A stretch of DNA of 20,000 bases from Chiloscyllium plagiosum (Eukaryota): the NCBI RefSeq assembly GCF_004010195.1, contig NC_057752.1:13159467-13179466 (forward strand), in the 5' to 3' direction. Positions 110 to 20,000 of this stretch are shown here, piece by piece; the stretch's first letter is position 1, and each line of letters opens with the position of its first letter. Both the position numbers and the translations under genes were made by a program. The notes below the pieces were generated by a model. That model did no database searches. It saw only the letters and a program-made list of their open reading frames with translations, and was not told the DNA's origin.

Positions 110-510
110 CTATAAAAGGATCACTGGAGCTGAAACATTAAATCTGATTTCTCTCCACAGATGCTGCCAGACCTGATTAGATTAAATTAGATTTCCTACA
201 GTGTGGAAACAGGCCGTTCGGCCCAACCAGTCCACGCCGACCCTCCGAAGAGTAATGCACCCAGACCGATTTCCCTCTGACTAATGCACCTAACACTACG
301 GGCAATTTAGCATTGCCAATTCACCCTGACCTGCACATCTTTGGACAGTACAAGGAAACCGGAGCACCCAGGGGACACCCATGCAGACATGGGGAGAATG
401 TCTGTTTGGAGTTTGCACAGCTGCCAGAGGCTTGAATCGAACCTGGGACCCTGGTGTTGTGATACAGCAGTGCTAACAACTAAGCTTTTCCAGCAATTTC
501 TGTTTTTGTT
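110..510 (+). mobile_element. Degenerate hammerhead-bearing Penelope-like short repeat (110-174 and 486-510), split by a SINE
   Basis: ggatcactggagctGAAAcattaaatctgatttctctccacagatgctgccagacctg (to ~175) resumes as ttttccagcaatttctgtttttgtt (486-510). Matches the copies at 11226, 15920 and 16752. The CTGAnGA box is decayed. Confidence 0.7.
176..485 (-). mobile_element. HE1-type tRNA-derived SINE (V-SINE superfamily), slightly 5'-truncated
   Basis: Reverse-complement match to the + copy at 3090-3396, with a B-box-like GTTCGATTC on the minus strand (~434-442), a CR1-like tail and terminal (AATCT)n-like repeats at 176-195. Confidence 0.88.
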
Positions 511-3089: not shown

Positions 3090-3396
3090 AGCAGCACAGT
3101 GGCTCAGTGATTAGCACTACTGCCTTACAGCACCAGGGTCCCAAGTTCAATTCCAGCCTCAGGCAACTGTCTGTGTGGGTTTCCTCTCACAACTCAAAGA
3201 TGTGCAGGTTAGGGTGAATTGGCCATGCTAAATTGCCCATGGGTGTTTAGGGAAGTGTAGGTTAGGTGCATTAGTCAGGGGGAAATTTAGGATAATAGGG
3301 TAGGGGAATGAGTCTGGGTGGGTTACTCTTCAGAAGGTCAGTGTGGACTTGTTGGGCTGAATGCCCTGTTTCCACACTGTAGGGAATCTACGATCT
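3090..3396 (+). mobile_element. HE1-type tRNA-derived SINE with internal deletion
   Basis: A box TGGCTCAGTGA (3100-3110) and B box GTTCAATTCC (3145-3154), plus a CR1-like tail (ggacttgttgggctgaatgccctgtttccacactgtagggaatct). Lacks a central block that is present in the 176-485 copy. Confidence 0.9.
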
Positions 3397-3439
3397 TAAG
3401 AGGCTTCACTTCATACACAAAATGCCTCAAAACACCCTC

Positions 3440-4197
3440 AATATTCATTTTAGAAGCAAAAACAAGGCAGCAGATTACTACCTGAATGGGTGTACATTGG
3501 GAGAGGGGTGCATGCATTGGGATCTGGGTGTCCGTATGCACCAGGCGCTGGAAGGTAGGCATGCAGGTGCAGCCGGCAGTAAAGGCGGCCAATGGGATGG
3601 TGACTTTCATTGCCAGAGATTTAGAGTACAGCAGCAAAGATGCATTATCACAGTCATACAGGGCCTAGAATATTGTGCACAGTTTTGGTCTCCTGTTCTG
3701 AGAAAGGATGCCTCTTGGTCTCCAGGGAGTGCAGTGAAGGTTGCCCAGGCTGACTCCAGGGATGGTGGGACTGATGTATGTGGAGAGATTGTCTAGGTTA
3801 GGATTGTTTGCACTGGAGGAGTTCAGATGAATGAGCAGGGATCTCAGACTTAAAATTCTAACAGTACTAGACCAGGTAGCTGCAGGGAGGATGTTCCTGA
3901 TGGTGAGTGTGTCCAGAACCAGGGGTCACAGTCTGAGGATTCAGGGTAGACCATTTAGGACAGAGATGAGGAGACATTTCTTCAGCCAAAGAGTGGGGAG
4001 CCTGTGGAATTCATTGATGCCAAAACATTGAACGCATTCAAGAGGTAGCTAGATTTAGGACTTGGGGTGAATGGGGTCAAAGGTTATGGGGAGAAAGCAG
4101 GATTAGGCTATTGAGTTGGACAATCAGCCCTGATCGTGATGAATAGCAGAGTAGGCTCGAAGGGCCGAATGGCCTCCTCCTGCTGCTATGTTTCTAT
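3440..4197 (+). mobile_element. CR1-clade LINE 3' fragment (decayed ORF2 C-terminus and 3' UTR)
   Basis: Frameshifted peptides LEYCAQFWSP, SRTRGHSLRIQGRPFRTEMRRHFFSQRVGSLWNSL. Typical end gggccgaatggcctcctcctgctgctatgtttctat. Confidence 0.9.
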
Positions 4198-6800: not shown

Positions 6801-7011
6801 CTGGAAAGGAAGAGTCCAAATTAACATCACACAGTAACAGAGAGAGGAGGTCACAGCTTGCCATGCAACTAGTACACATCGCAATGGTTTCTATGATTTT
6901 AGCAGAAACAAACCACTTCATTCATTCCAATAGATTAACCTTTGTCACAAACCAATGGCTTAATACGTACACAAATTGGATCGGGAAAGAAGGGCATTTG
7001 GTCTAACCAGT

Positions 7012-7720
7012 CCACGACCACACGACACAAGCAGAAGTAGCCCATTAAGCCCATCGAGTCTGCTCCATCTGTCAATGGGATCATGGCTGGTCTGATCATC
7101 CCCAACTCCACTTTCCTGCCTTTTCCCCATCACCCCTCCATTCCCCTTCCTGATTAAACATCTCTCTGTCTCAGCCTTGAATATACTCACTGACCCAGCC
7201 CCGACAGCCCTCTGTGGGAAAGAATTCCACAGACTCACTCCCCTCTGAGGGAAGAAATTCCTCCTCATCTCTGTCTGCAATGGGTGACCCCTTATTCTGA
7301 AATTGTATCCTCTGGTCCTAGACACTCTCCCACAAGGGGAGAGCAATCTTTCCACATCTCCCTTCTCAAGTCCCCTCAGAATCTTGTAGAGTCAGTTCTG
7401 CTTTAACGTAATGGTTCCATTCTCTCACAACCCCATGTTATATGAAAATTGTGTAATAGCAGCACCATTTAACCAACGGGGCTGGAATCACATTATGACC
7501 AATATATGCTTCAAAAGTTCACGCTTTAGAAACACTGCCCCAAATTCGTCAATTGCGTGACAGCAAATTCATCTTAACGAAACACGCATGTTATAGCAGA
7601 ATAACCTGCCGGTTTCAATAAGGTCACCTCTCAGTCTTCTACACCCCAGTGAGTACAGGCCCAACCAACTCAACCTCTCCTCATGAGGGTCCCTCCATAC
7701 CCAGGATCAGTCAAGCGAAC
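7012..7720 (-). mobile_element. CR1-clade LINE 3' fragment (7012-7388 and 7611-7720) interrupted by a MITE
   Basis: ORF 6960..7355 contains SRTRGYNFRIRGHPLQTEMRRNFFPQRGVSLWNSFPQRAV. The CR1 sequence resumes after the insert (gtttcaataaggtcacctctc). Confidence 0.88.
7389..7608. mobile_element. MITE (~220 bp), probably Tc1/mariner (pogo/Tigger-like)
   Basis: Imperfect terminal inverted repeats gagtcagTTCTGCTtTAACg (7389-7408) and tGTTAtAGCAGAAtaacctg (7589-7608). Preceded by TA, with no ORF, and cleanly splits a CR1. Confidence 0.7.
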
Positions 7721-8329
7721 AACTTTATGTACAACTCTTTAACAAAAAAAACAAACACTGTATTAAGTCTTTCTACTTTGTCTAAGAAAAAACAATTTGA
7801 CACTTTGCTGCATTCTGCAAAGAATGTTCTGGCCTTTGCTTTATGCACGTGCCAGTACTTCCCCCAAAACAATGACGGACGTTACGACCACAGGCTCTGA
7901 TATGGCACTTTTAAACACCGAATACATGGCAGAGTTCAATGACAAAAAAAAAAGAGTACAGCCAAGGAAGGAAATATTAGGGAGGGGGATGACAGCTGGG
8001 TTTGGAAGAAGGATCATTACTGCAGATGGTCTTGCTGCAACAGAATAGACAAGGCTGGAACCACCGACAGGTGATCTCACCGAGTTCGGACGTGGTGCAG
8101 AGGACTTGGCAGAGAACAAGGTGGTCAACCTGGATATCACCTCTTTTTGCTCAAGTCAGTACCAAGAATGTGGGTTGTGGCCCTGGTCTTGGTGCATGCA
8201 ATTTCAACCGCACTGGGAGGTTCAAACAGAATTACGGCAGAGAAATGTACAGGGAGAACAAAAGAGAGGATAACTTAATAGATTCAAACGATCCAAGTTT
8301 GCAGACCATGTATTCTCACCTGGATCTGT

Positions 8330-10509: not shown

Positions 10510-11222
10510 TCAGAATTTGGATGTCACTGACTAGGCTAGTATTTACTGCCCATCCGCACCTGTCCACAAGAAACATAGAAAATAGGGGCAAGAGTAAGCC
10601 ATTCGGCCCTCCGAGTGTGCAGCACCATTCAATACAATGGCTGATAATGCAACCTCTCCCCTTAATCCCTTTAGTCACAAGGGCCATGTCAGCTCCCTCT
10701 TGAATCTAATGAAGTGGCCCCAGCAGCTTCCTGTGGAAGAATTCCACAGGTTCACAACTCTCTGGAGGGAAGACGCTCTTCCTTATCCCAGTCCTCAATG
10801 GCTTTCCTCTTATTCTTAAGGCTGTGATGGTGAGCCACCTTCTCAAACTACTGCAGTCAATAGTGGGGAATGAACACCCACAATGCCCTGAGGGAGGGAG
10901 CTCCAGGATATTGACCCAGTGACACTGAAGGAACAGCGATATATTTCCCAGTCAGGATGGTGTGGGGCAGCTTGCAGTGGGGTGGTGCTCCTATATATGC
11001 CAGACCACTCGATGTTAGAGATCGCTCATTTGCAAGGAACTGCAGAAGGAAGCTTGGCAAGTGGGTACGTCTTGTAGATGGTACACAGTGCTGTCATTGT
11101 GCGCTGGTGCAATAGGAGATGAACGTTTAAGGTGTTAGATCAAGCAGGCTTTGTCAGAGAAAGTGTCAAGCGAGTATTCAGTTACATTCCCAATTTGTGC
11201 CTTGAAGATGGTGGACAGACTT
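10510..11222 (-). mobile_element. 3' fragment of a second LINE family (CR1/L2 group), split by a younger CR1 (pieces ~10510-10560 and ~10822-11222)
   Basis: Tail ggatgggcagtaaatactagcctagtcagtgacatccaa on the minus strand resembles the SINE tail at 2439-2490. The upstream body (gatatatttcccagtcaggatgg, cttgtagatggtacacagtgctg) is a recognisable shark LINE 3' region. Confidence 0.65.
10563..10820 (-). mobile_element. CR1 3'-end fragment nested in another LINE
   Basis: aaacatagaaaataggggcaagagtaagccattcggccc (reverse of the CR1 end) and gaattccacaggttcacaactctctgg, homologous to 7222-7250. Confidence 0.82.
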
Positions 11223-11225
11223 CTC

Positions 11226-11317
11226 GGGTCATTGGACTAGAAACATGAATTCTGCTTTCTCTCCACAGGTGCTGCCAGACCTACCGATTTGCTCCAGAAA
11301 TTTGTTTTTGTTCAGAT
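11226..11317 (+). mobile_element. Truncated hammerhead-type Penelope-like short repeat
   Basis: gggtcattggactaGAAAcatgaattctgctttctctccacaggtgctgccagacc...tttgtttttgtt. A stem II remnant and GAAA are present but the CTGAnGA box is absent. Confidence 0.7.
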
Positions 11318-11319
11318 AA

Positions 11320-12071
11320 AGTCAAGAGATGTACAGCATAGAAACAAACCTTCGGTCCAACCTGTCCATGCTGACCAGATATCCTAAATTAATCTAGTCC
11401 CATTTGCCAGCACCCAGCCTATATCCCTCTAAACCCTTCCTATGCATATACCCATCCAGGTGCATTTTAAATGTTGTAATTGTACCAGCCTCCACCACTT
11501 CCTCTGGCAGCTCATTCCATACACGCACCACCCTCTGAGTGAAAAAGTTCCCCCTCAGATCTCTTTTATATCTTTCCCCTCTCACCTTAAACCTATGCCC
11601 TTCTAGTTCTAGGCTCCCCGACCCTGGAGAAAATACTTTGTCTATTTATCCTATCCATGCCCCCCTTGATTTTATAAACCTCTATGAGGTCACCCCTCAG
11701 CCTTCGATGTTCCAGGGAAAACAGCCCCAGCCTGTTCAGCCTCTCCCTATAGCTCAAATCCTCCAACCCTGGCAACATCCTTGTAAATCTTTTATGAACC
11801 CTTTCAAGTTTCACAACATCTTTGCGATAGGAAGGAGACCAGAATTGCACGCAATATTCCAACAGTGGCCTAACCAATGTCCTGTACAGCTGCAGCATGA
11901 CCTCCCAACCCCTGTACTCAATACTCTGACCAATAAAGGAAAGTATACCAAAAGCCTCCTTCACTATCCTATCTACCTGCGACTCCACTTTCAAGGAGCT
12001 ATGAACCTGCACTCCAAGGTCTCTTTGTTCAGCAACACTTTCTGGGACCTTACCAGCGAGTGTAAAAGTCT
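11320..12071 (-). mobile_element. Young HER1/CR1 LINE 3' fragment (ORF2 C-terminus and 3' UTR)
   Basis: ORFs 11593..12084 (RDLGVQVHSSLK..LYRTLVRPLLEYCVQFWSP..RLRGDLIEVYKI) and 11394..11585 (LRGNFFTQRVVRVWNELP), separated by one frameshift. Confidence 0.95.
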
Positions 12072-12099
12072 TCGGCATCCACAACTCTTAGTCTTTTTA

Positions 12100-14121: not shown

Positions 14122-14872
14122 AAAGGGAATGGAGTATAAAGATAGGGAGGTCTTGCTAAAAACCAAACAAGGCACTAGTCAGACCACAGCCTGAATACTG
14201 TGAACAGGTTTGGAGCCCCTCAGCTAAGGAAAGACAGACATTGAAGGTTCACTGGGTTAATTCCAAAATGCGAGACGATGCATTTTGGAAGATCCAATTC
14301 AACAGCAAACTATACAGTAAGTCCTGGGGAAAATTGATGGACAGATCTGGGTGTTCAGGTTCATTGTTCCCTGAAAGTGGCAACACAGGTCAGTAGAGTG
14401 GTCAAGCATGCTTTCCTTCATCAGACGGGGTATTGAGTACAAGGGTTGGCAGGTCATGTTACAGTTGTATAGGACTTTGGTTCAGCCACAGGTGAAATAC
14501 TGCGTACAGTTCTGGTCGCCACATTACCAAAAGGATGTGGATGCTTTGGAGAGGGTGCAGAGGAGGGTCACCAGGATGTTGCCTGGTATGGAGGGGGCTG
14601 GCTATGAAGAGAGGTTGAGTAGATTAGGATTATTTTCATTCGAAAGGAGGTGGTTGAGGGGGGGACCTGATTGCAGTCTACAAAATCATGAGAGGTACAG
14701 ACAGGGTGGATAGCAAGGAGCTCAAAAATAGATTAGATTAGTTGTTGGAAAGAGAGGAAATATGGTGTAACGGGAACAGAGTAGATCCATGGGATTAGGA
14801 ATACTGCCCACGAAGATAAACACCACATTAAAAGGAGGCCAAAAACCCATTTCCATATTGTGATTGCTATGT
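14122..14872 (+). mobile_element. Composite CR1 fragments: younger piece ~14263-14721 inside or abutting an older copy
   Basis: ORF 14408..14713 reads MLSFIRRGIEYKGWQVMLQLYRTLVQPQVKYCVQFWSPHYQKDVDALERVQRR. The same ORF2 region appears, more decayed, at 14122-14262, and a decayed 3' end lies at ~14722-14872. Confidence 0.85.
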
Positions 14873-15266
14873 AGCTCTACATAAGTAGTTAAAAGACAAA
14901 AATGAATAACGTACTAAAAAGTGTAAACCATCGCCCATTTTGCATTGCCTCCTCGGGTGACCTTCTACGTCCCGCATTTCTTTGTATTTCTTAACCCTTT
15001 TACTGAACAAACACTAGGTTAATAGAGGGATAAGGGAATTCCTTTGACATAGCAAGGATTGACAGAGGGGGGCATGGTGAGGACAAAGGCATAATTTTAC
15101 ACCTCTTGGTAGTAGTTGATCACAAAGTGTTTAAACAAATAAGCAGCTTAACAAACATGTACAGAATATACCAAATAACTGATAATCACAAATTCATTGC
15201 TGCCATGGGGAGGGTGCACAACAAAAGTCTGTTCAAAGTCCACATGTACCATTGGACTGGGCATAC

Positions 15267-15356
15267 CTGGCACAGTAGTGGTGATGGCTGCATTGGCTAA
15301 TGACACAGTGAAAGGTTCATTCAAGGGGGCTGGGAACAATGAAAGACCTGCAGAAC
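15267..15356 (-). CDS. GORASP2: Internal coding exon of GRASP55/GORASP2-like gene
   Basis: Branch and acceptor ctctaactcttgttttcag|GT, donor CCAG|gtatgc. 90 nt, phase 1-1, reading (G)SAGLSLFPAPLNEPFTVSLANAAITTTVP(G). Similar to recalled GRASP55 GVPTVPLLPPQVNQSLTSVPPMNPATTLPG. Confidence 0.78.
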
Positions 15357-15877
15357 CTGAAAACAAGAGTTAGAGTTTACTGTAAAAGGACATTTTAAAA
15401 AATCGGAAGTGTAACATTACAGTTTCACTGGATTATCCTCAGCAGAATACAAATAAAGTATTGGTGTAGAAAGAATGAGATGCTGAAACTTTCTTTTGAT
15501 ATTTAAACTCAAGAAAAAAAAAAGTCTTCTATACCATTTCCGAGCATAGAAAGCAAGTTAAACAACTGCACTCCGTCATCCTACTCCTCAATTTCCATTT
15601 GGAACATGAAGTATTGGTGACAGATGACAATTGGCGAAAAGAAATTGCTAAAATGGAGGAATGTGAGGAGAGAGAGTGTTACTGTTTGCATACCTATCAT
15701 CCAAGCTGTGCATGCATACTCAGCTTCCTCAGTCACACACAGTAACATGGCGAAGCCAGTTCTGTGATCAACCACTTTGTATTTGTACATCACCCTGCAA
15801 TATCACATGTCTTGTACTATTGTTTGAGAAGTTTTAGAAGAGCTGGCTAGAGACATGGTTAAAAGGTGAAAGAGTCA

Positions 15878-16005
15878 AATAAAAACAAAATACTGCAGGT
15901 GCTAGGAACCGGAGAGTTGCTGCCAAAGAGTCATACCAGACTCCAAATGTTAACACGGTTTCTCTCTCCAGAGATGCTGCCAGACGTGCTGAGATTTTTT
16001 CCAGG
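15878..16005 (+). mobile_element. Hammerhead-type Penelope-like short repeat with inverted 5' piece; core decayed
   Basis: Inverted tail piece aaataaaaacaaaatactgcaggtgct, then CTGccaa-a-GAGTC-atacca-GACTC-cAAA-tgttaac (15920-15954) and the family tail. Stem II is intact but both catalytic boxes are mutated. Confidence 0.75.
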
Positions 16006-16189
16006 AAAGGGTTAAAACCTGACAGGGGGTAGAAACAGAGAGGCTTGGTGAGAGATTACTCCATGAAGAAAACGGACAACTGATCGCCATGCACCAGGAG
16101 GCCAACAGCAAAAAACAACAAGTCCATAAGACAAGAAAACTGGGACATAGTAATAGAAAAAGCTGCAGAGACAGGTTAGGGTAAGAGTC

Positions 16190-16560
16190 TGGCAAGTTGT
16201 AAATGGAGCCCAACATAGGGCAAGGGGCCAATGGAATTCAGCAAGTGTAGAGGGTGATAGGCAATAGGCAAGGAAGTCTTTCAAGGAGACAGACTGCAGC
16301 TTTGGATGAATTGGTGTTCGTATACAGTGAAGGTCATGGGGACTGAAGTTTAAGTCACAATGCAATGAAAAGCAGAGGTGAGAAGGTGTAAGCAAGAGAG
16401 GTACAAGCGATGGCAGTCAAGGGTGCAGAGGTAGAGCTATGCAGTCTTAAACAATGGGTGAGATATAGTTTTGAGGCTTGACCCAGAGCACTTGAACAGG
16501 ATGGAGATTGAGATAGAGATCGGGGGAAAAAAAAAGGTATGAATTTCCAGTGGAAACTAA
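16190..16560 (-). mobile_element. Possible old L2-like LINE remnant
   Basis: Purine-rich + strand with decayed motifs resembling shark L2 sequence. A similar block lies at ~13590-14120. Recognition is weak. Confidence 0.3.
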
Positions 16561-16751
16561 GTAAGGTGCATTTGGATGTTCTCATTATGTAAATGTTGTG
16601 TTAGGTCAGCAGCCCGACAAGAAAGACAACAATGAAAGCCAGAGTGGCAGGACAGCGAGTGAGAGCGACAGAGACAGACGAGTTGTCGAAGTAAAAACAC
16701 TCCAGTGTGTGGAAGTCTACATAAAACATCTTTTGTATATGTTTTAATTGT

Positions 16752-16847
16752 AAGCAAAGTGCTGGAGAAACTCAGCAGATCTGGCAGCATCTGTGGAAGG
16801 GAAAAAAACAGTTAACATTTCGAGTCCAGTGAGCCTTCTTCAGAACC
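16752..16847 (-). mobile_element. Hammerhead-type Penelope-like short repeat
   Basis: Reverse orientation of the family tail (gtgctggagaaactcagcagatctggcagcatctgtgg) joined to the ribozyme motif. Confidence 0.82.
16809..16847 (-). ncRNA. Minimal type I hammerhead ribozyme motif
   Basis: GGTT-CTGAAGA-A-GGCTC-actg-GACTC-GAAA-TG-TT-AACT. Both catalytic boxes are intact, stem I is GGUU/AACU, and stem II has one G-U and one mismatch. Confidence 0.6.
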
Positions 16848-17200
16848 AAAAGCAAGGTGAGAAATGGTGGCGATTGCGAATACCCCTTTCCAAATGAAGC
16901 AACCTCTGGGACAGTCTGGGACCTTCCCCTCGTCAGAGAGATGCCTGAAGATTTATTTGAGCATCACGTGAATCTTAAATCAAACCATGATCTAACTTTA
17001 AACATGAACAGTGAATTTAAAAACCCACTTGGCTAAAAGCAGCAATTTCCAAATATTGGGCATTAACATCTGATTCTAGTCACTATAAACTGAAAGTGAC
17101 TGAAGCAGTAATAGCTGATAACCTGACAACAGAAATAACACCCAACTCCTACCACAACTGCAGTTGCATCTGTCTTAGCAATAAACACTGAGTTTATATT

Positions 17201-17367
17201 AAAAAAAACAGAAAATGCTCAAAATTATTAGCATGCCTGTTTTTCTCTCTCTAAAGATGCTGCCAGAGTTAACATTTCAGGTCTGTAACCTATTGTGGTA
17301 AGTGGTTACAGACCCTAAACATTAACGATTATTCTTGCAACAGCATCCACAATATTTTCTGTCTTTG
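17201..17367. mobile_element. Head-to-head inverted pair of the hammerhead-type repeat, decayed
   Basis: 23-nt arms 17268-17290 and 17304-17326 are reverse complements (19/23), with family tails facing outward. Confidence 0.72.
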
Positions 17368-17769
17368 CTACAATAAGCCAGAGTCATTGGAGATGAGGAG
17401 GTCCATCATTTTCAATTTAATTTAGTCGCAATCCTAAAGCTATGGAAGGCAAAAGGGCACAAGCAGTACCACAGAGAAACAGTCTGAAGATATCGCTGAC
17501 TTATGCAGCCACAAGAACATAAAAGCTCTTTGTAGTCCAGGGACTAGATGGTTCAAGGTTGAACCTCTAGGGAAGAGCTCAAACTGCTGTTAGATAGACT
17601 TTCATAAGACTCCGACAAGAAATACGTTTAACTGGATATTGAGCAAAGCCAGGTCAGGTACAGCAAGGATTAGAAGATGACATTGAGCAATGAAATGTAA
17701 TAAATAGAAACAATTCTCCCATCATCCCAACTTAAAACATAAAAACGGAATAACTGGAGGCTGATATTA

Positions 17770-17863
17770 GAGTCAGAGATATACAGCATGGAAACAGACC
17801 CTTCGGTCCAACTCATCCATGCTGACCAAATATCCCAATCTAATCTAGTCCCACCTGCCAGCA
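17770..17863 (-). mobile_element. HER1/CR1 extreme 3' tail fragment
   Basis: Closely matches 11320-11412 (tacagcatggaaacagacccttcggtccaac..ccatgctgacca..aatctagtccca). Confidence 0.9.
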
Positions 17864-17959
17864 CGTGTTGCTGCTGATCCCAATTTCTCTTGCGAGCTGC
17901 AGTAAAATTAGGTGCCTTCTGTACATGGCTCAACAACGCATGGAGCTAGATCAAAGGCA

Positions 17960-18084
17960 AACATTGAATGATGGAGAAACTCTGCACAGTTGGCAGCATC
18001 CATTAAGACAGAAGCAGAGTTAATGTTTCGAGCCCGGTATGACTCCTCAGAACTAGATCTAGTTGCCTGCATTTTTGTTTTGTT
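17960..18084 (-). mobile_element. Hammerhead-type Penelope-like short repeat with palindromic junction
   Basis: Minus strand reads AGTT-CTGAG-GAGTC-ataccg-GGCTC-GAAA-CA-TT-AACT, a core 3 nt shorter than the 16809 copy. Perfect palindrome aactagatctagtt at 18051-18064. Confidence 0.75.
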
Positions 18085-18479
18085 GATAAGCGAGATGGTA
18101 CTAGTCACGGACTAAGGCCCATGATACAAGTCAGGAAACCGACAGATGGCAGAACAGACAGTTTGGAGGGCTTACAAAAGCCAGAATTAGAGAAAGGAGG
18201 TAATGCAGTGACTCATGAGAAGCAATTTTCTCAATAAGCAGCAACAGTAGATATTAGAAGACCATGTACTATTTTTCATTGGTGCACAGAAGTAGTCAAC
18301 AGTTGTAGGTAGAACAACAGTAAAAAAGCAGAGGATGAAGTGGACCATGGTGCAGAGATTATAACCTCACTAATTTTAGAGTTATTCACTCAATATCCGT
18401 TTTTATAATGGAAACTGTTTTGCATAAACTCAGTGCAACTGCACATTGCCAGTGACAGCACTGCAGGATACAATTGGAG

Positions 18480-18615
18480 GAGAAAGTGAGGACTGCAGAT
18501 GCTGGAGATCAGAGCTGAAAATGTGTTGCTGGAAAAGCGCAGCAGGTCAGGCAGCATCCAGGGAACAGGAGAATCGATGTTTCGGGCATAAGCCCTTCTT
18601 CAGGATTCCTGAAGA
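18480..18615 (-). mobile_element. 136-bp hammerhead-bearing retroposed element with 16-bp target-site duplication
   Basis: Flanked by identical caggatacaattggag at 18464-18479 and 18616-18631. Contains the ribozyme motif and the family tail ggatgctgcctgacctgctgcgcttttccagca. Confidence 0.92.
18571..18608 (-). ncRNA. Minimal type I hammerhead ribozyme motif (Penelope-like-element type)
   Basis: GAATC-CTGAAGA-A-GGGC-ttat-GCCC-GAAA-CA-TC-GATTC. Perfect 5-bp stem I and 4-bp stem II, both catalytic boxes intact, AUC triplet, vestigial stem III. Confidence 0.75.
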
Positions 18616-19258
18616 CAGGATACAATTGGAGCCTGATAAGGTTAATGGAGGCAGCTTCCATGATAAATTCTTCATAAAGCCAAATGCAGAGTTGACAGTG
18701 AGTGCAAACGGATAGAAGATTCACATTAGAAACGTTAGAGCTGTTGAACCAAGTGTGCAGTGTGAAAGAGAAAGTCAAGCATCAGGGAGACTGCTTTAAC
18801 TGAGCAGACGTAGGAACTGTGTTTGAGGATCTGATCAGCCAGAGACAAAAGGATGTTAAAATGGATGAAGGAGTCAAAAAGGAGAGAGGAAGGAGCGGTT
18901 GATTGACCAGAGAGATGATAAGCTCACTTTGAGGAATTAAAAAAAAAAAACACATTTTGATAGCTTTACTGAAGCAACTGTTTTTTTTTGCTAAAACCGG
19001 ATTCATCCACTGCAATGCAAGGGGTCTGAAGATTGAACAAACAGAAGGAGGTGACCTGGAGGAACTGACTCAGCAAAGGAACACGAGTAACGACAACATG
19101 TAGGAGCAGCCCTGATGATAAAGAACTCCAAAGGACAATTTCATGTTTTATTATATGCATGACAAAATCTTCAACATGCAGAAAATTACTTAGCAGGCTG
19201 TAAATGACCGCATTAAAAAATTAATTCAAGGAACGTGAGCATAGCTGGCTGAGCAGGC

Positions 19259-19400
19259 ACGAGAGTGAGGGAGCGAGAGCGAGAGCGAGAGCGAGAGCGA
19301 GAGAGAGCGAGAGAGAGAGCAAGAGCAAGCACAGGCTCTCTCTCTCCGCGCGAGAGAGAATGTGTGAGACAGAGTGAGAGCGCGAGAGAGCGCCCGAGAG
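19259..19400. repeat. (GAGAGC)n/(GA)n microsatellite and GA-rich low-complexity tract
   Basis: gagcgagagcgagagcgagagcgagagcgagagagagc..., with an inverted CT tract at 19336-19346. Confidence 0.95.
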
Positions 19401-19419
19401 AACCAACTCCAGGAAGGTT

Positions 19420-20000
19420 GGATATACCCATTTCAAACACGTATGCTGTTTTGGATAACGTAGGGGGTGATGGATTCTCAGGGGAACGTAGCACAAACAG
19501 CCAAGTTTCTGGTATTGAGACTGGCTCTAATGAATCAAGGGAACGTCAGGTTCCATGAGATCAATTGTGTTATGGGATTCTCTAGTCCGAGGTACAGACA
19601 GACGTTTCTGTGGCCAGCAGAGAAAAAGCAGACTGGTGTGTTGTTTCCCTGGTGCCAGGATCAAGGATGTCTTGGAGAAGGTGCAGAAGTTCTCATGGGG
19701 GAAGAGGGGCCAGCAGGAGGTCATTGTCCACATTGGAACCAATGACCATAGGAAGGGATAAGGTTGAGATTCTAAAGGGAGATTACAGAGAGTTAGGCAG
19801 GAATTTAAAAAGGAGGTCCTCAAGGGTAGTAATATCTGGATTACTCCCAGTGCTACGAGGTAGTGAGGGCAGGAATAGGAGGATAGAGCAGATGAATGCA
19901 TGGCTGAGGAGCTGGGAAATGGGAGAAGGATTCACATTTTTGGATCATTGGAATCTCTTGGGGTAGAAGTGACCTGTACAAGAAGGATGGATTGCACCTA
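19420..20000 (+). mobile_element. CR1 LINE ORF1 region (SGNH/GDSL esterase domain), frameshifted; continues beyond the window
   Basis: Motifs in order: PISNTYAVL, IVLWDSLVR (GDS block, G to W at 19573-19575), CFPGARI, VIVHIGTND (19735-19746), VVISGLLP, and DGLHL (19986-20000). They are spread across several frames. Confidence 0.92.

Follow-up and report, generated by a model that had tools for sequence, protein, structure and literature searches.

A hammerhead-bearing insertion near a GORASP2-like gene of Chiloscyllium plagiosum is probably a truncated copy of a Penelope-like element

A short insertion that carries a hammerhead ribozyme motif lies on the exon-bearing strand of a GORASP2-like gene in a 20,000-nucleotide stretch of the Chiloscyllium plagiosum genome (the whole stretch analyzed, hereafter the window). 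What kind of element is it, how was it copied into place, and does its ribozyme act on the host transcript? An initial annotation of the window had described a self-contained ribozyme retroelement of 136 bp with a perfect 16-bp target-site duplication. The insert and its duplication are borne out by exact 16-mers: CAGGATACAATTGGAG is identical at 18464-18479 and 18616-18631, the match does not extend beyond 16 bp, and the 136 nt between the two copies (18480-18615) form the insert, which reads on the minus strand. Among the 13 exact 16-mer pairs within 500 nt of each other in the window, 12 belong to a (GAGAGC)n run and the remaining one is this duplication. The evidence supports a genuine retro-insertion with a 16-bp duplication, bounded as follows.

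18464..18479, unstranded: target-site duplication, copy at the element's 3' end; exact 16-mer
18480..18615, minus strand: whole 136-bp insert; defined by the 16-mer pair and by junction-crossing contigs in sequencing runs X1 and X2
18616..18631, unstranded: target-site duplication, copy at the element's 5' end; exact 16-mer, at which the alignment of one contig from run X15 begins (exactly 18616)

The ribozyme boxes stand as first read on the minus strand, including the extra A and the predicted cleavage at 18576/18575. GAATC (18608-18604) is followed by CUGAAGA (18603-18597), the extra A (18596), GGGC-UUAU-GCCC (18595-18584), GAAA (18583-18580), CA and UC, the predicted cut, and GAUUC (18575-18571). 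All core boxes (CUGANGA and GAAA) and the UH at the cut site are present, and stem II comprises 4 bp (GC GC GC CG) with G10.1-C11.1 and one extra base between positions 9 and 10.1. In the window a minimal-hammerhead descriptor has a single match. Over 200 first-order Markov simulations the mean was 0.02 matches, and when both stems had to measure 4 bp or more, none of the 200 produced a match. The Rfam scan that the initial annotation had put forward as a check gave no match at E<=1; the motif contains no helix III loop 3, and the blank probably reflects a limit of the Rfam models for motifs that lack helix III.

18576..18603, minus strand: minimal type I hammerhead core, with CUGAAGA, the extra A, stem II, GAAA, the vestigial helix III ACAU and UC
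18604..18608, minus strand: 5' strand of stem I as first read; in our parse 18606-18608 would come from an inverted arm
18606..18615, minus strand: inverted arm of 9-10 nt, reverse complement of the start of the direct arm; forms a palindrome with 18597-18605
18480..18575, minus strand: 3' strand of stem I (18575-18571) and a tail of ~90 nt with a predicted hairpin and a conserved GATGCTGCC-type block

These motif features support a hammerhead of the minimal Penelope type. Like the minimal hammerheads of metazoan Penelope-like elements (PMC4209133), it combines CUGANGA and GAAA with an extra base at 9/10.1, G10.1-C11.1 and no loop 3; further likenesses are a majority ACGU, thousands of solo copies and stems that vary between subfamilies. 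It differs from them in that the insert has lost the palindromic ACGU and that its stem I is partly a junction product.

To place the insert within its repeat family, we used alignments of four of 24 public runs (X1, X2, X15 and X21) to positions 18100-19000 (901 bp) at 88% likeness. X1, X2 and X15 are DNA runs, the last from another organism, a sister species; X21 is an RNA run. The aligned contigs numbered 56,579 in X1 (whole run), 77,505 in X2 (84% read) and 49,324 in X15 (82% read). Summed depth reached 6-21 million on the insert versus 9-13 on its flanks, that is, 0.8-2.3 million times the flank depth – figures that are not copy numbers. They do show a very large family: the insert is a single copy of a shark repeat that is very abundant.

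The family has a fixed 3' end. Among the ends listed, loose contig ends at 18477, 18478 and 18479 number 191, 748 and 398 in X1 and 321, 1396 and 853 in X2, and beyond these positions the contigs diverge into unrelated AT-rich DNA, with an agreement of 0.33-0.35 in the DNA runs. This pile and the unrelated continuations place the 3' end sharply at 18477-18479, as expected from the defined ends claimed initially, with an overlap of ~2 nt with the duplication. The last 2 nt of 18464-18479 indeed match the 3' terminus of the family, likely as priming microhomology. The insert has no poly(A) or simple-repeat tail (18480-18575 examined).

The 5' end is less simple. Loose ends also pile strongly at 18605 (among the ends listed), but the sequence behind this position shares its first 6 letters among the four runs and its first 13 between X1 and X21, so part of the family continues upstream. 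Exact head-to-tail joints from 18605 to 18477, 129 nt apart, were found in 4, 25 and 7 contigs of the three DNA runs and, among the joints listed, in two organisms. Positions 18597-18615 of the insert form a 19-bp palindrome with 9-bp arms centered on 18606, which the first reading overlooked. The direct copy ends 2-3 nt upstream of the core, and the other 9-10 nt duplicate the core in inverted orientation.

These observations revise two of the initial claims. At 18606 most of the family carries an A (plus strand), which makes up 58-83% of the depth reaching that position in the four runs, and the family's sequence continues beyond 18605 in part of its copies. Because the family base at 18606 differs and sequence is shared beyond 18605, the 5-bp stem I would be a junction product: of the five bases in the seemingly perfect GAAUC strand, three come from the inverted arm. 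Judged from these bases, the subfamily's usual stem I appears to be another than the one seen in the insert. Nor does the description as a self-contained 136-bp unit hold, since its 5' 9-10 bases are an inverted core duplicate and part of the family extends upstream. All three DNA runs contain joints to the opposite strand that end at 18594-18609 (among the joints listed), which makes 5' inversions a family trait.

Six older relatives of the insert lie in the same window and differ from it in their stem I and stem II sequences.

16760..16850, minus strand: older relative A; intact core, stem I GGTT/AACT, damaged stem II
17948..18064, minus strand: older relative B; shortened core, stem I AGTT/AACT, stem II GAGTC/GGCTC
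15910..16007, plus strand: older relative C; decayed core, stem II GAGTC/GACTC
17230-17300, minus strand: further older hammerhead-plus-tail relative
11210-11307 and 110-178, plus strand: two further older hammerhead-plus-tail relatives

In relatives A and B the first stem I pair is altered on both strands (U-A versus C-G), and B and C carry another stem II; the 5' strand of the insert's own subfamily differs from the insert at 18606. Relative B has its own perfect 14-bp 5' palindrome (18051-18064), which immediately precedes the core, just where the main insert has its palindrome. No duplications of at least 8 bp were found around older copies A, B and D. At positions 15.2/16.2, four of the seven aligned window copies carry CA and three carry TG, the two products of CG decay, so all seven fit CpG decay. 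In the public runs, the change 18578 T>C, which gives ACGU, accounts for 70%, 69%, 62% and 77% of the family depth. The family majority thus carries the palindromic ACGU at 15.2-16.2 and, with G in 62-77% of family depth, the idea that the ACAU of the insert is derived from ACGU is upheld.

Taken together, we read the insert as a copy of an abundant repeat that represents the 5'-truncated end-piece of an endonuclease (EN)-bearing Penelope-like element, copied from uncut RNA and with an inert hammerhead – a reading to which we assign a probability of about three in four. The assignment to Penelope is made because of architecture and motif. A Penelope-type integration could have proceeded as follows. 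An RT/GIY-YIG protein would bind the RNA downstream of the hammerhead, with the target nicked at points 16 bp apart. The plus-strand end at 18479, with its 2-nt match to the RNA, would prime cDNA ~120 nt past the core, and synthesis would pass through the uncut ribozyme and halt 2-3 nt upstream of the core. The 9-10-nt inverted arm would be added by self-priming or as a second short cDNA from the other nick, repair would then create the duplication around the insert, and CpG decay would afterwards convert ACGU to ACAU. If so, the insert is a clean specimen of Penelope integration, with an exact duplication, a 2-nt priming match, an uncut template and a tiny inverted arm.

Several steps have counterparts in characterized elements. 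For the anole element Poseidon, uncut RNA is reported as the main template, with ribozyme cleavage not needed, and the protein nicks and extends both strands (PMC11167929). RT there starts 111-118 nt after a start codon at the hammerhead, and the cut falls 26 nt after that codon (PMC11167929); in the shark family the corresponding distances, counted from the A of the core triplet, are 121-123 nt to the 3' end and 25 nt to the predicted cut. Rotifer Penelope copies have 5' palindromes of 18 and 38 bp and duplications of 8-10 bp, read as self-priming (PMC3846280), inverted 5'-truncated arms are described as general among Penelope-like elements (PMC8557442), and minimal hammerheads of animals are mostly solo, which has been ascribed to truncated elements (PMC4209133). 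Heavy 5' truncation, an inverted arm, a junction palindrome and a duplication (PMC3846280, PMC8557442, PMC11167929), together with a fixed 3' end (121-123 versus 111-118 nt) and uncut RNA as template (PMC11167929), are likenesses between the insert and EN-bearing Penelope/Poseidon elements as those sources portray them. Unlike them, the insert has an inverted arm of just 9-10 nt, no coding part and a duplication that, at 16 bp, exceeds the 8-10 bp of the rotifer copies (PMC3846280). An internal promoter has been described in the terminal repeat of Penelope (PMC2377424), and by analogy such a promoter might explain why 5' ends cluster near the ribozyme.

Searches for coding or wider relatives returned little. 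Pfam gave no RT or GIY-YIG match in 62 of the 203 window frames of at least 45 aa (those ending after 14,500), nor in 13 picked window frames. The open 40-aa frame of the tail had no relatives among 1.84 billion proteins (phmmer), and a search of this frame as a protein start yielded one candidate and none scoring. The initial view that the unit was mobilized in trans holds only in the plain sense that the insert codes for nothing. Pattern scans for the family gave 0 matches in viral contigs and 0 in prokaryote genomes; two metagenome matches (L001 and L002) had no hammerhead or tail context and were set aside as chance in GC-rich DNA. While this kind of element is already well described, the literature searched contained no account of this shark family, which closed supplements or repeat databases may list; the searched files among the supplements of PMC8557442 and PMC4209133 held no shark entry.

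An unlikely, though serious, alternative is that the insert belongs to a dedicated non-autonomous mini-element of ~129 nt (retrozyme- or SINE-like) with its own source loci, re-inserted in trans by a Penelope enzyme. Short or tandem copies would then be transcribed and possibly cut and circularized as dimers, and the insert would be a monomer plus an inverted arm. The sharp 3' end and the strong pile of loose ends at 18605, the 129-nt head-to-tail joints in all three DNA runs, the very high abundance and the retention of ACGU by the majority all favor such an element; clustering at both ends and head-to-tail joints fit it as well as they fit a Penelope end-piece. Non-LTR retrozymes have moreover been proposed to derive from Penelope terminal repeats and are reported from the one chondrichthyan tested (10.64898/2026.07.22.740005). 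They resemble the insert in being short and non-coding with a type I hammerhead and a long duplication (PMC7229834; 10.64898/2026.07.22.740005), and rare head-to-tail units exist in its family. Retrozymes are, however, reported to occur as tandem units, whereas this locus holds a monomer with a minimal rather than canonical hammerhead (PMC7229834; 10.64898/2026.07.22.740005).

Other observations weigh against a mini-element. Tandem joints are few next to the tens of thousands of contigs, the family extends upstream of 18605 in part of its copies, and the insert starts upstream of the predicted cut and not at it. It contains no exact Pol III A or B box (judged by the usual consensus), no tRNA gene and no SINE-type tail. 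As a weak test, no pile of read ends was seen among 2,567 RNA reads of X21, a poly(A) single-cell library of which 2% was read; X21 depth is zero on the near flanks of the insert, so these reads come from other family copies. Of nine Xenopus dimers, only one is reported to have cleaved in vitro (10.64898/2026.07.22.740005).

A bolder form of this idea, which we hold to be more doubtful still, is a self-propagating 129-nt hammerhead mini-element with ~10^5 copies, whose RNA would start just upstream of the ribozyme or be a circle released from head-to-tail dimers by cleavage, and in which the inverted arm acts as an off switch. Were the mini-element real, it would be the smallest kind of Penelope parasite in bamboo-shark-like genomes, and an inverted arm added on landing would, as an off switch, spare host transcripts. 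If the short copies formed their own lineage with their own RNA, they would represent a very small and very successful ribozyme-bearing parasite and offer a handle on why Penelope-like elements keep hammerheads.

We return to the preferred reading, a truncated Penelope-like copy, to consider its host. A frame in the window matches GORASP2-like proteins of C. plagiosum (P0001) and Cetorhinus maximus, and residues 267-408 of P0001 map by tblastn to three minus-strand exons at near 100% identity.

15265..15357, minus strand: GORASP2-like exon nearest downstream of the insert (tblastn of P0001); its acceptor lies ~3.1 kb from the insert
13178-about 13050, minus strand: GORASP2-like exon (tblastn of P0001)
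6801-6592, minus strand: GORASP2-like exon (tblastn of P0001)

Residues 1-266 of P0001 were not found in the window to the right of 15357, and the best match among upstream exon candidates in 15358-20000 (E 0.11) was not credible. The insert had been placed in an intron of this gene, in sense orientation. The shared strand with the exons is observed; the intronic placement follows from the absence of an upstream exon in the window and is likely. Penelope-like elements are reported to be plentiful in whale shark introns (10.1101/443036). Within the last GORASP2-like intron, positions 7767-8273 (plus strand) hold two adjacent protein-like frames in antisense, with no Pfam match above cut-off – possibly a processed pseudogene.

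Could the hammerhead, by itself or together with the older hammerhead 1.76 kb away on the same strand, cut or destabilize the GORASP2-like pre-mRNA? The orientation and the complete core would permit it, and fold predictions point to the inverted arm as the obstacle. Hairpin pairs had probabilities of 0.87-1.0 in the insert alone, where stem I reached at most 0.001, and of 0.78-0.89 with 100-200 nt of flank, where stem I reached at most 0.08; the hammerhead fold carried penalties of +4.5 kcal/mol (insert alone) and +1.6 kcal/mol (with flanks). When the outer inverted arm was removed, stem I formed at 0.97-0.98. The stability of the whole-insert fold was unremarkable (z -1.8). The arm is thus very likely, on these predictions, to lock the hammerhead core in a hairpin. 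As the penalty with flanks is just 1.6 kcal/mol, the hairpin counts for less than the broken helix III in the case for an inert ribozyme: ACAU is not palindromic, and the helix III of a self-dimer would have two mismatches. The ACAU of the insert (18577-18580, minus strand) does pair fully with the AUGU of relative A (16815-16818, minus strand), but we rejected a cis heterodimer of the two, in which the crossed stem I helices fail at the first pair or rest on G-U pairs. Monomers of the minimal class are reported to show no cleavage and dimers to cut weakly (PMC4209133; PMC6765202). A lone monomer with no self-pairing helix III and its core in a hairpin is predicted not to cut, and we predict that the hammerhead is inactive in the host pre-mRNA. 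The copy is also probably young and absent from the sister species, and we regard cutting of the pre-mRNA as highly improbable. This single locus matters little in itself, as a likely inert and ordinary intronic repeat.

Mobilization of the unit by a LINE (CR1/L2-type) enzyme, with the hammerhead a passenger, is the least probable reading: 16 bp falls within the range of LINE duplications and LINE-like fragments are common in the window (judged by their translations), but the insert lacks a poly(A) or short-repeat 3' tail, and head-to-head 5' palindromes that duplicate the same bases, with a minimal hammerhead, are traits described for Penelope.

The window contains other repeats. By translation, LINE-like 3' fragments, presumably of CR1/L2 type, occur at 11394-12087 (minus strand), 14375-14713 (plus strand), 3338-3925 and 6960-7391; those that were scanned had no Pfam match. 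At 19253-19966 (plus strand), the (GAGAGC)n run gives way to broken frames whose weak match to a GDSL esterase (E 0.0034) falls below cut-off; we take them to resemble a CR1-type ORF1. A 52-nt repeat occurs in three copies at 1412-1594, with spacings of 61 and 70 nt.

The insertion was initially described as recent, and the sister species makes this likely. Long contigs in X1 and X2 span both insert junctions, palindrome included, and both same-species runs therefore carry the insert. X15, whose flanks are ~5% diverged (41 of 774 positions), has one contig that aligns up to 18479 with 3 spare letters and another that begins at 18616 with 11 spare letters; with a single 16-mer between them, the two would overlap by 30 letters. 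Neighboring contigs of a 31-letter word graph share 30 letters. No direct joint skipping the insert was seen among the joints listed; the contig ends fit an empty orthologous site, which we infer for the sister species. Whether the insert is present or absent could serve as a marker between close species.
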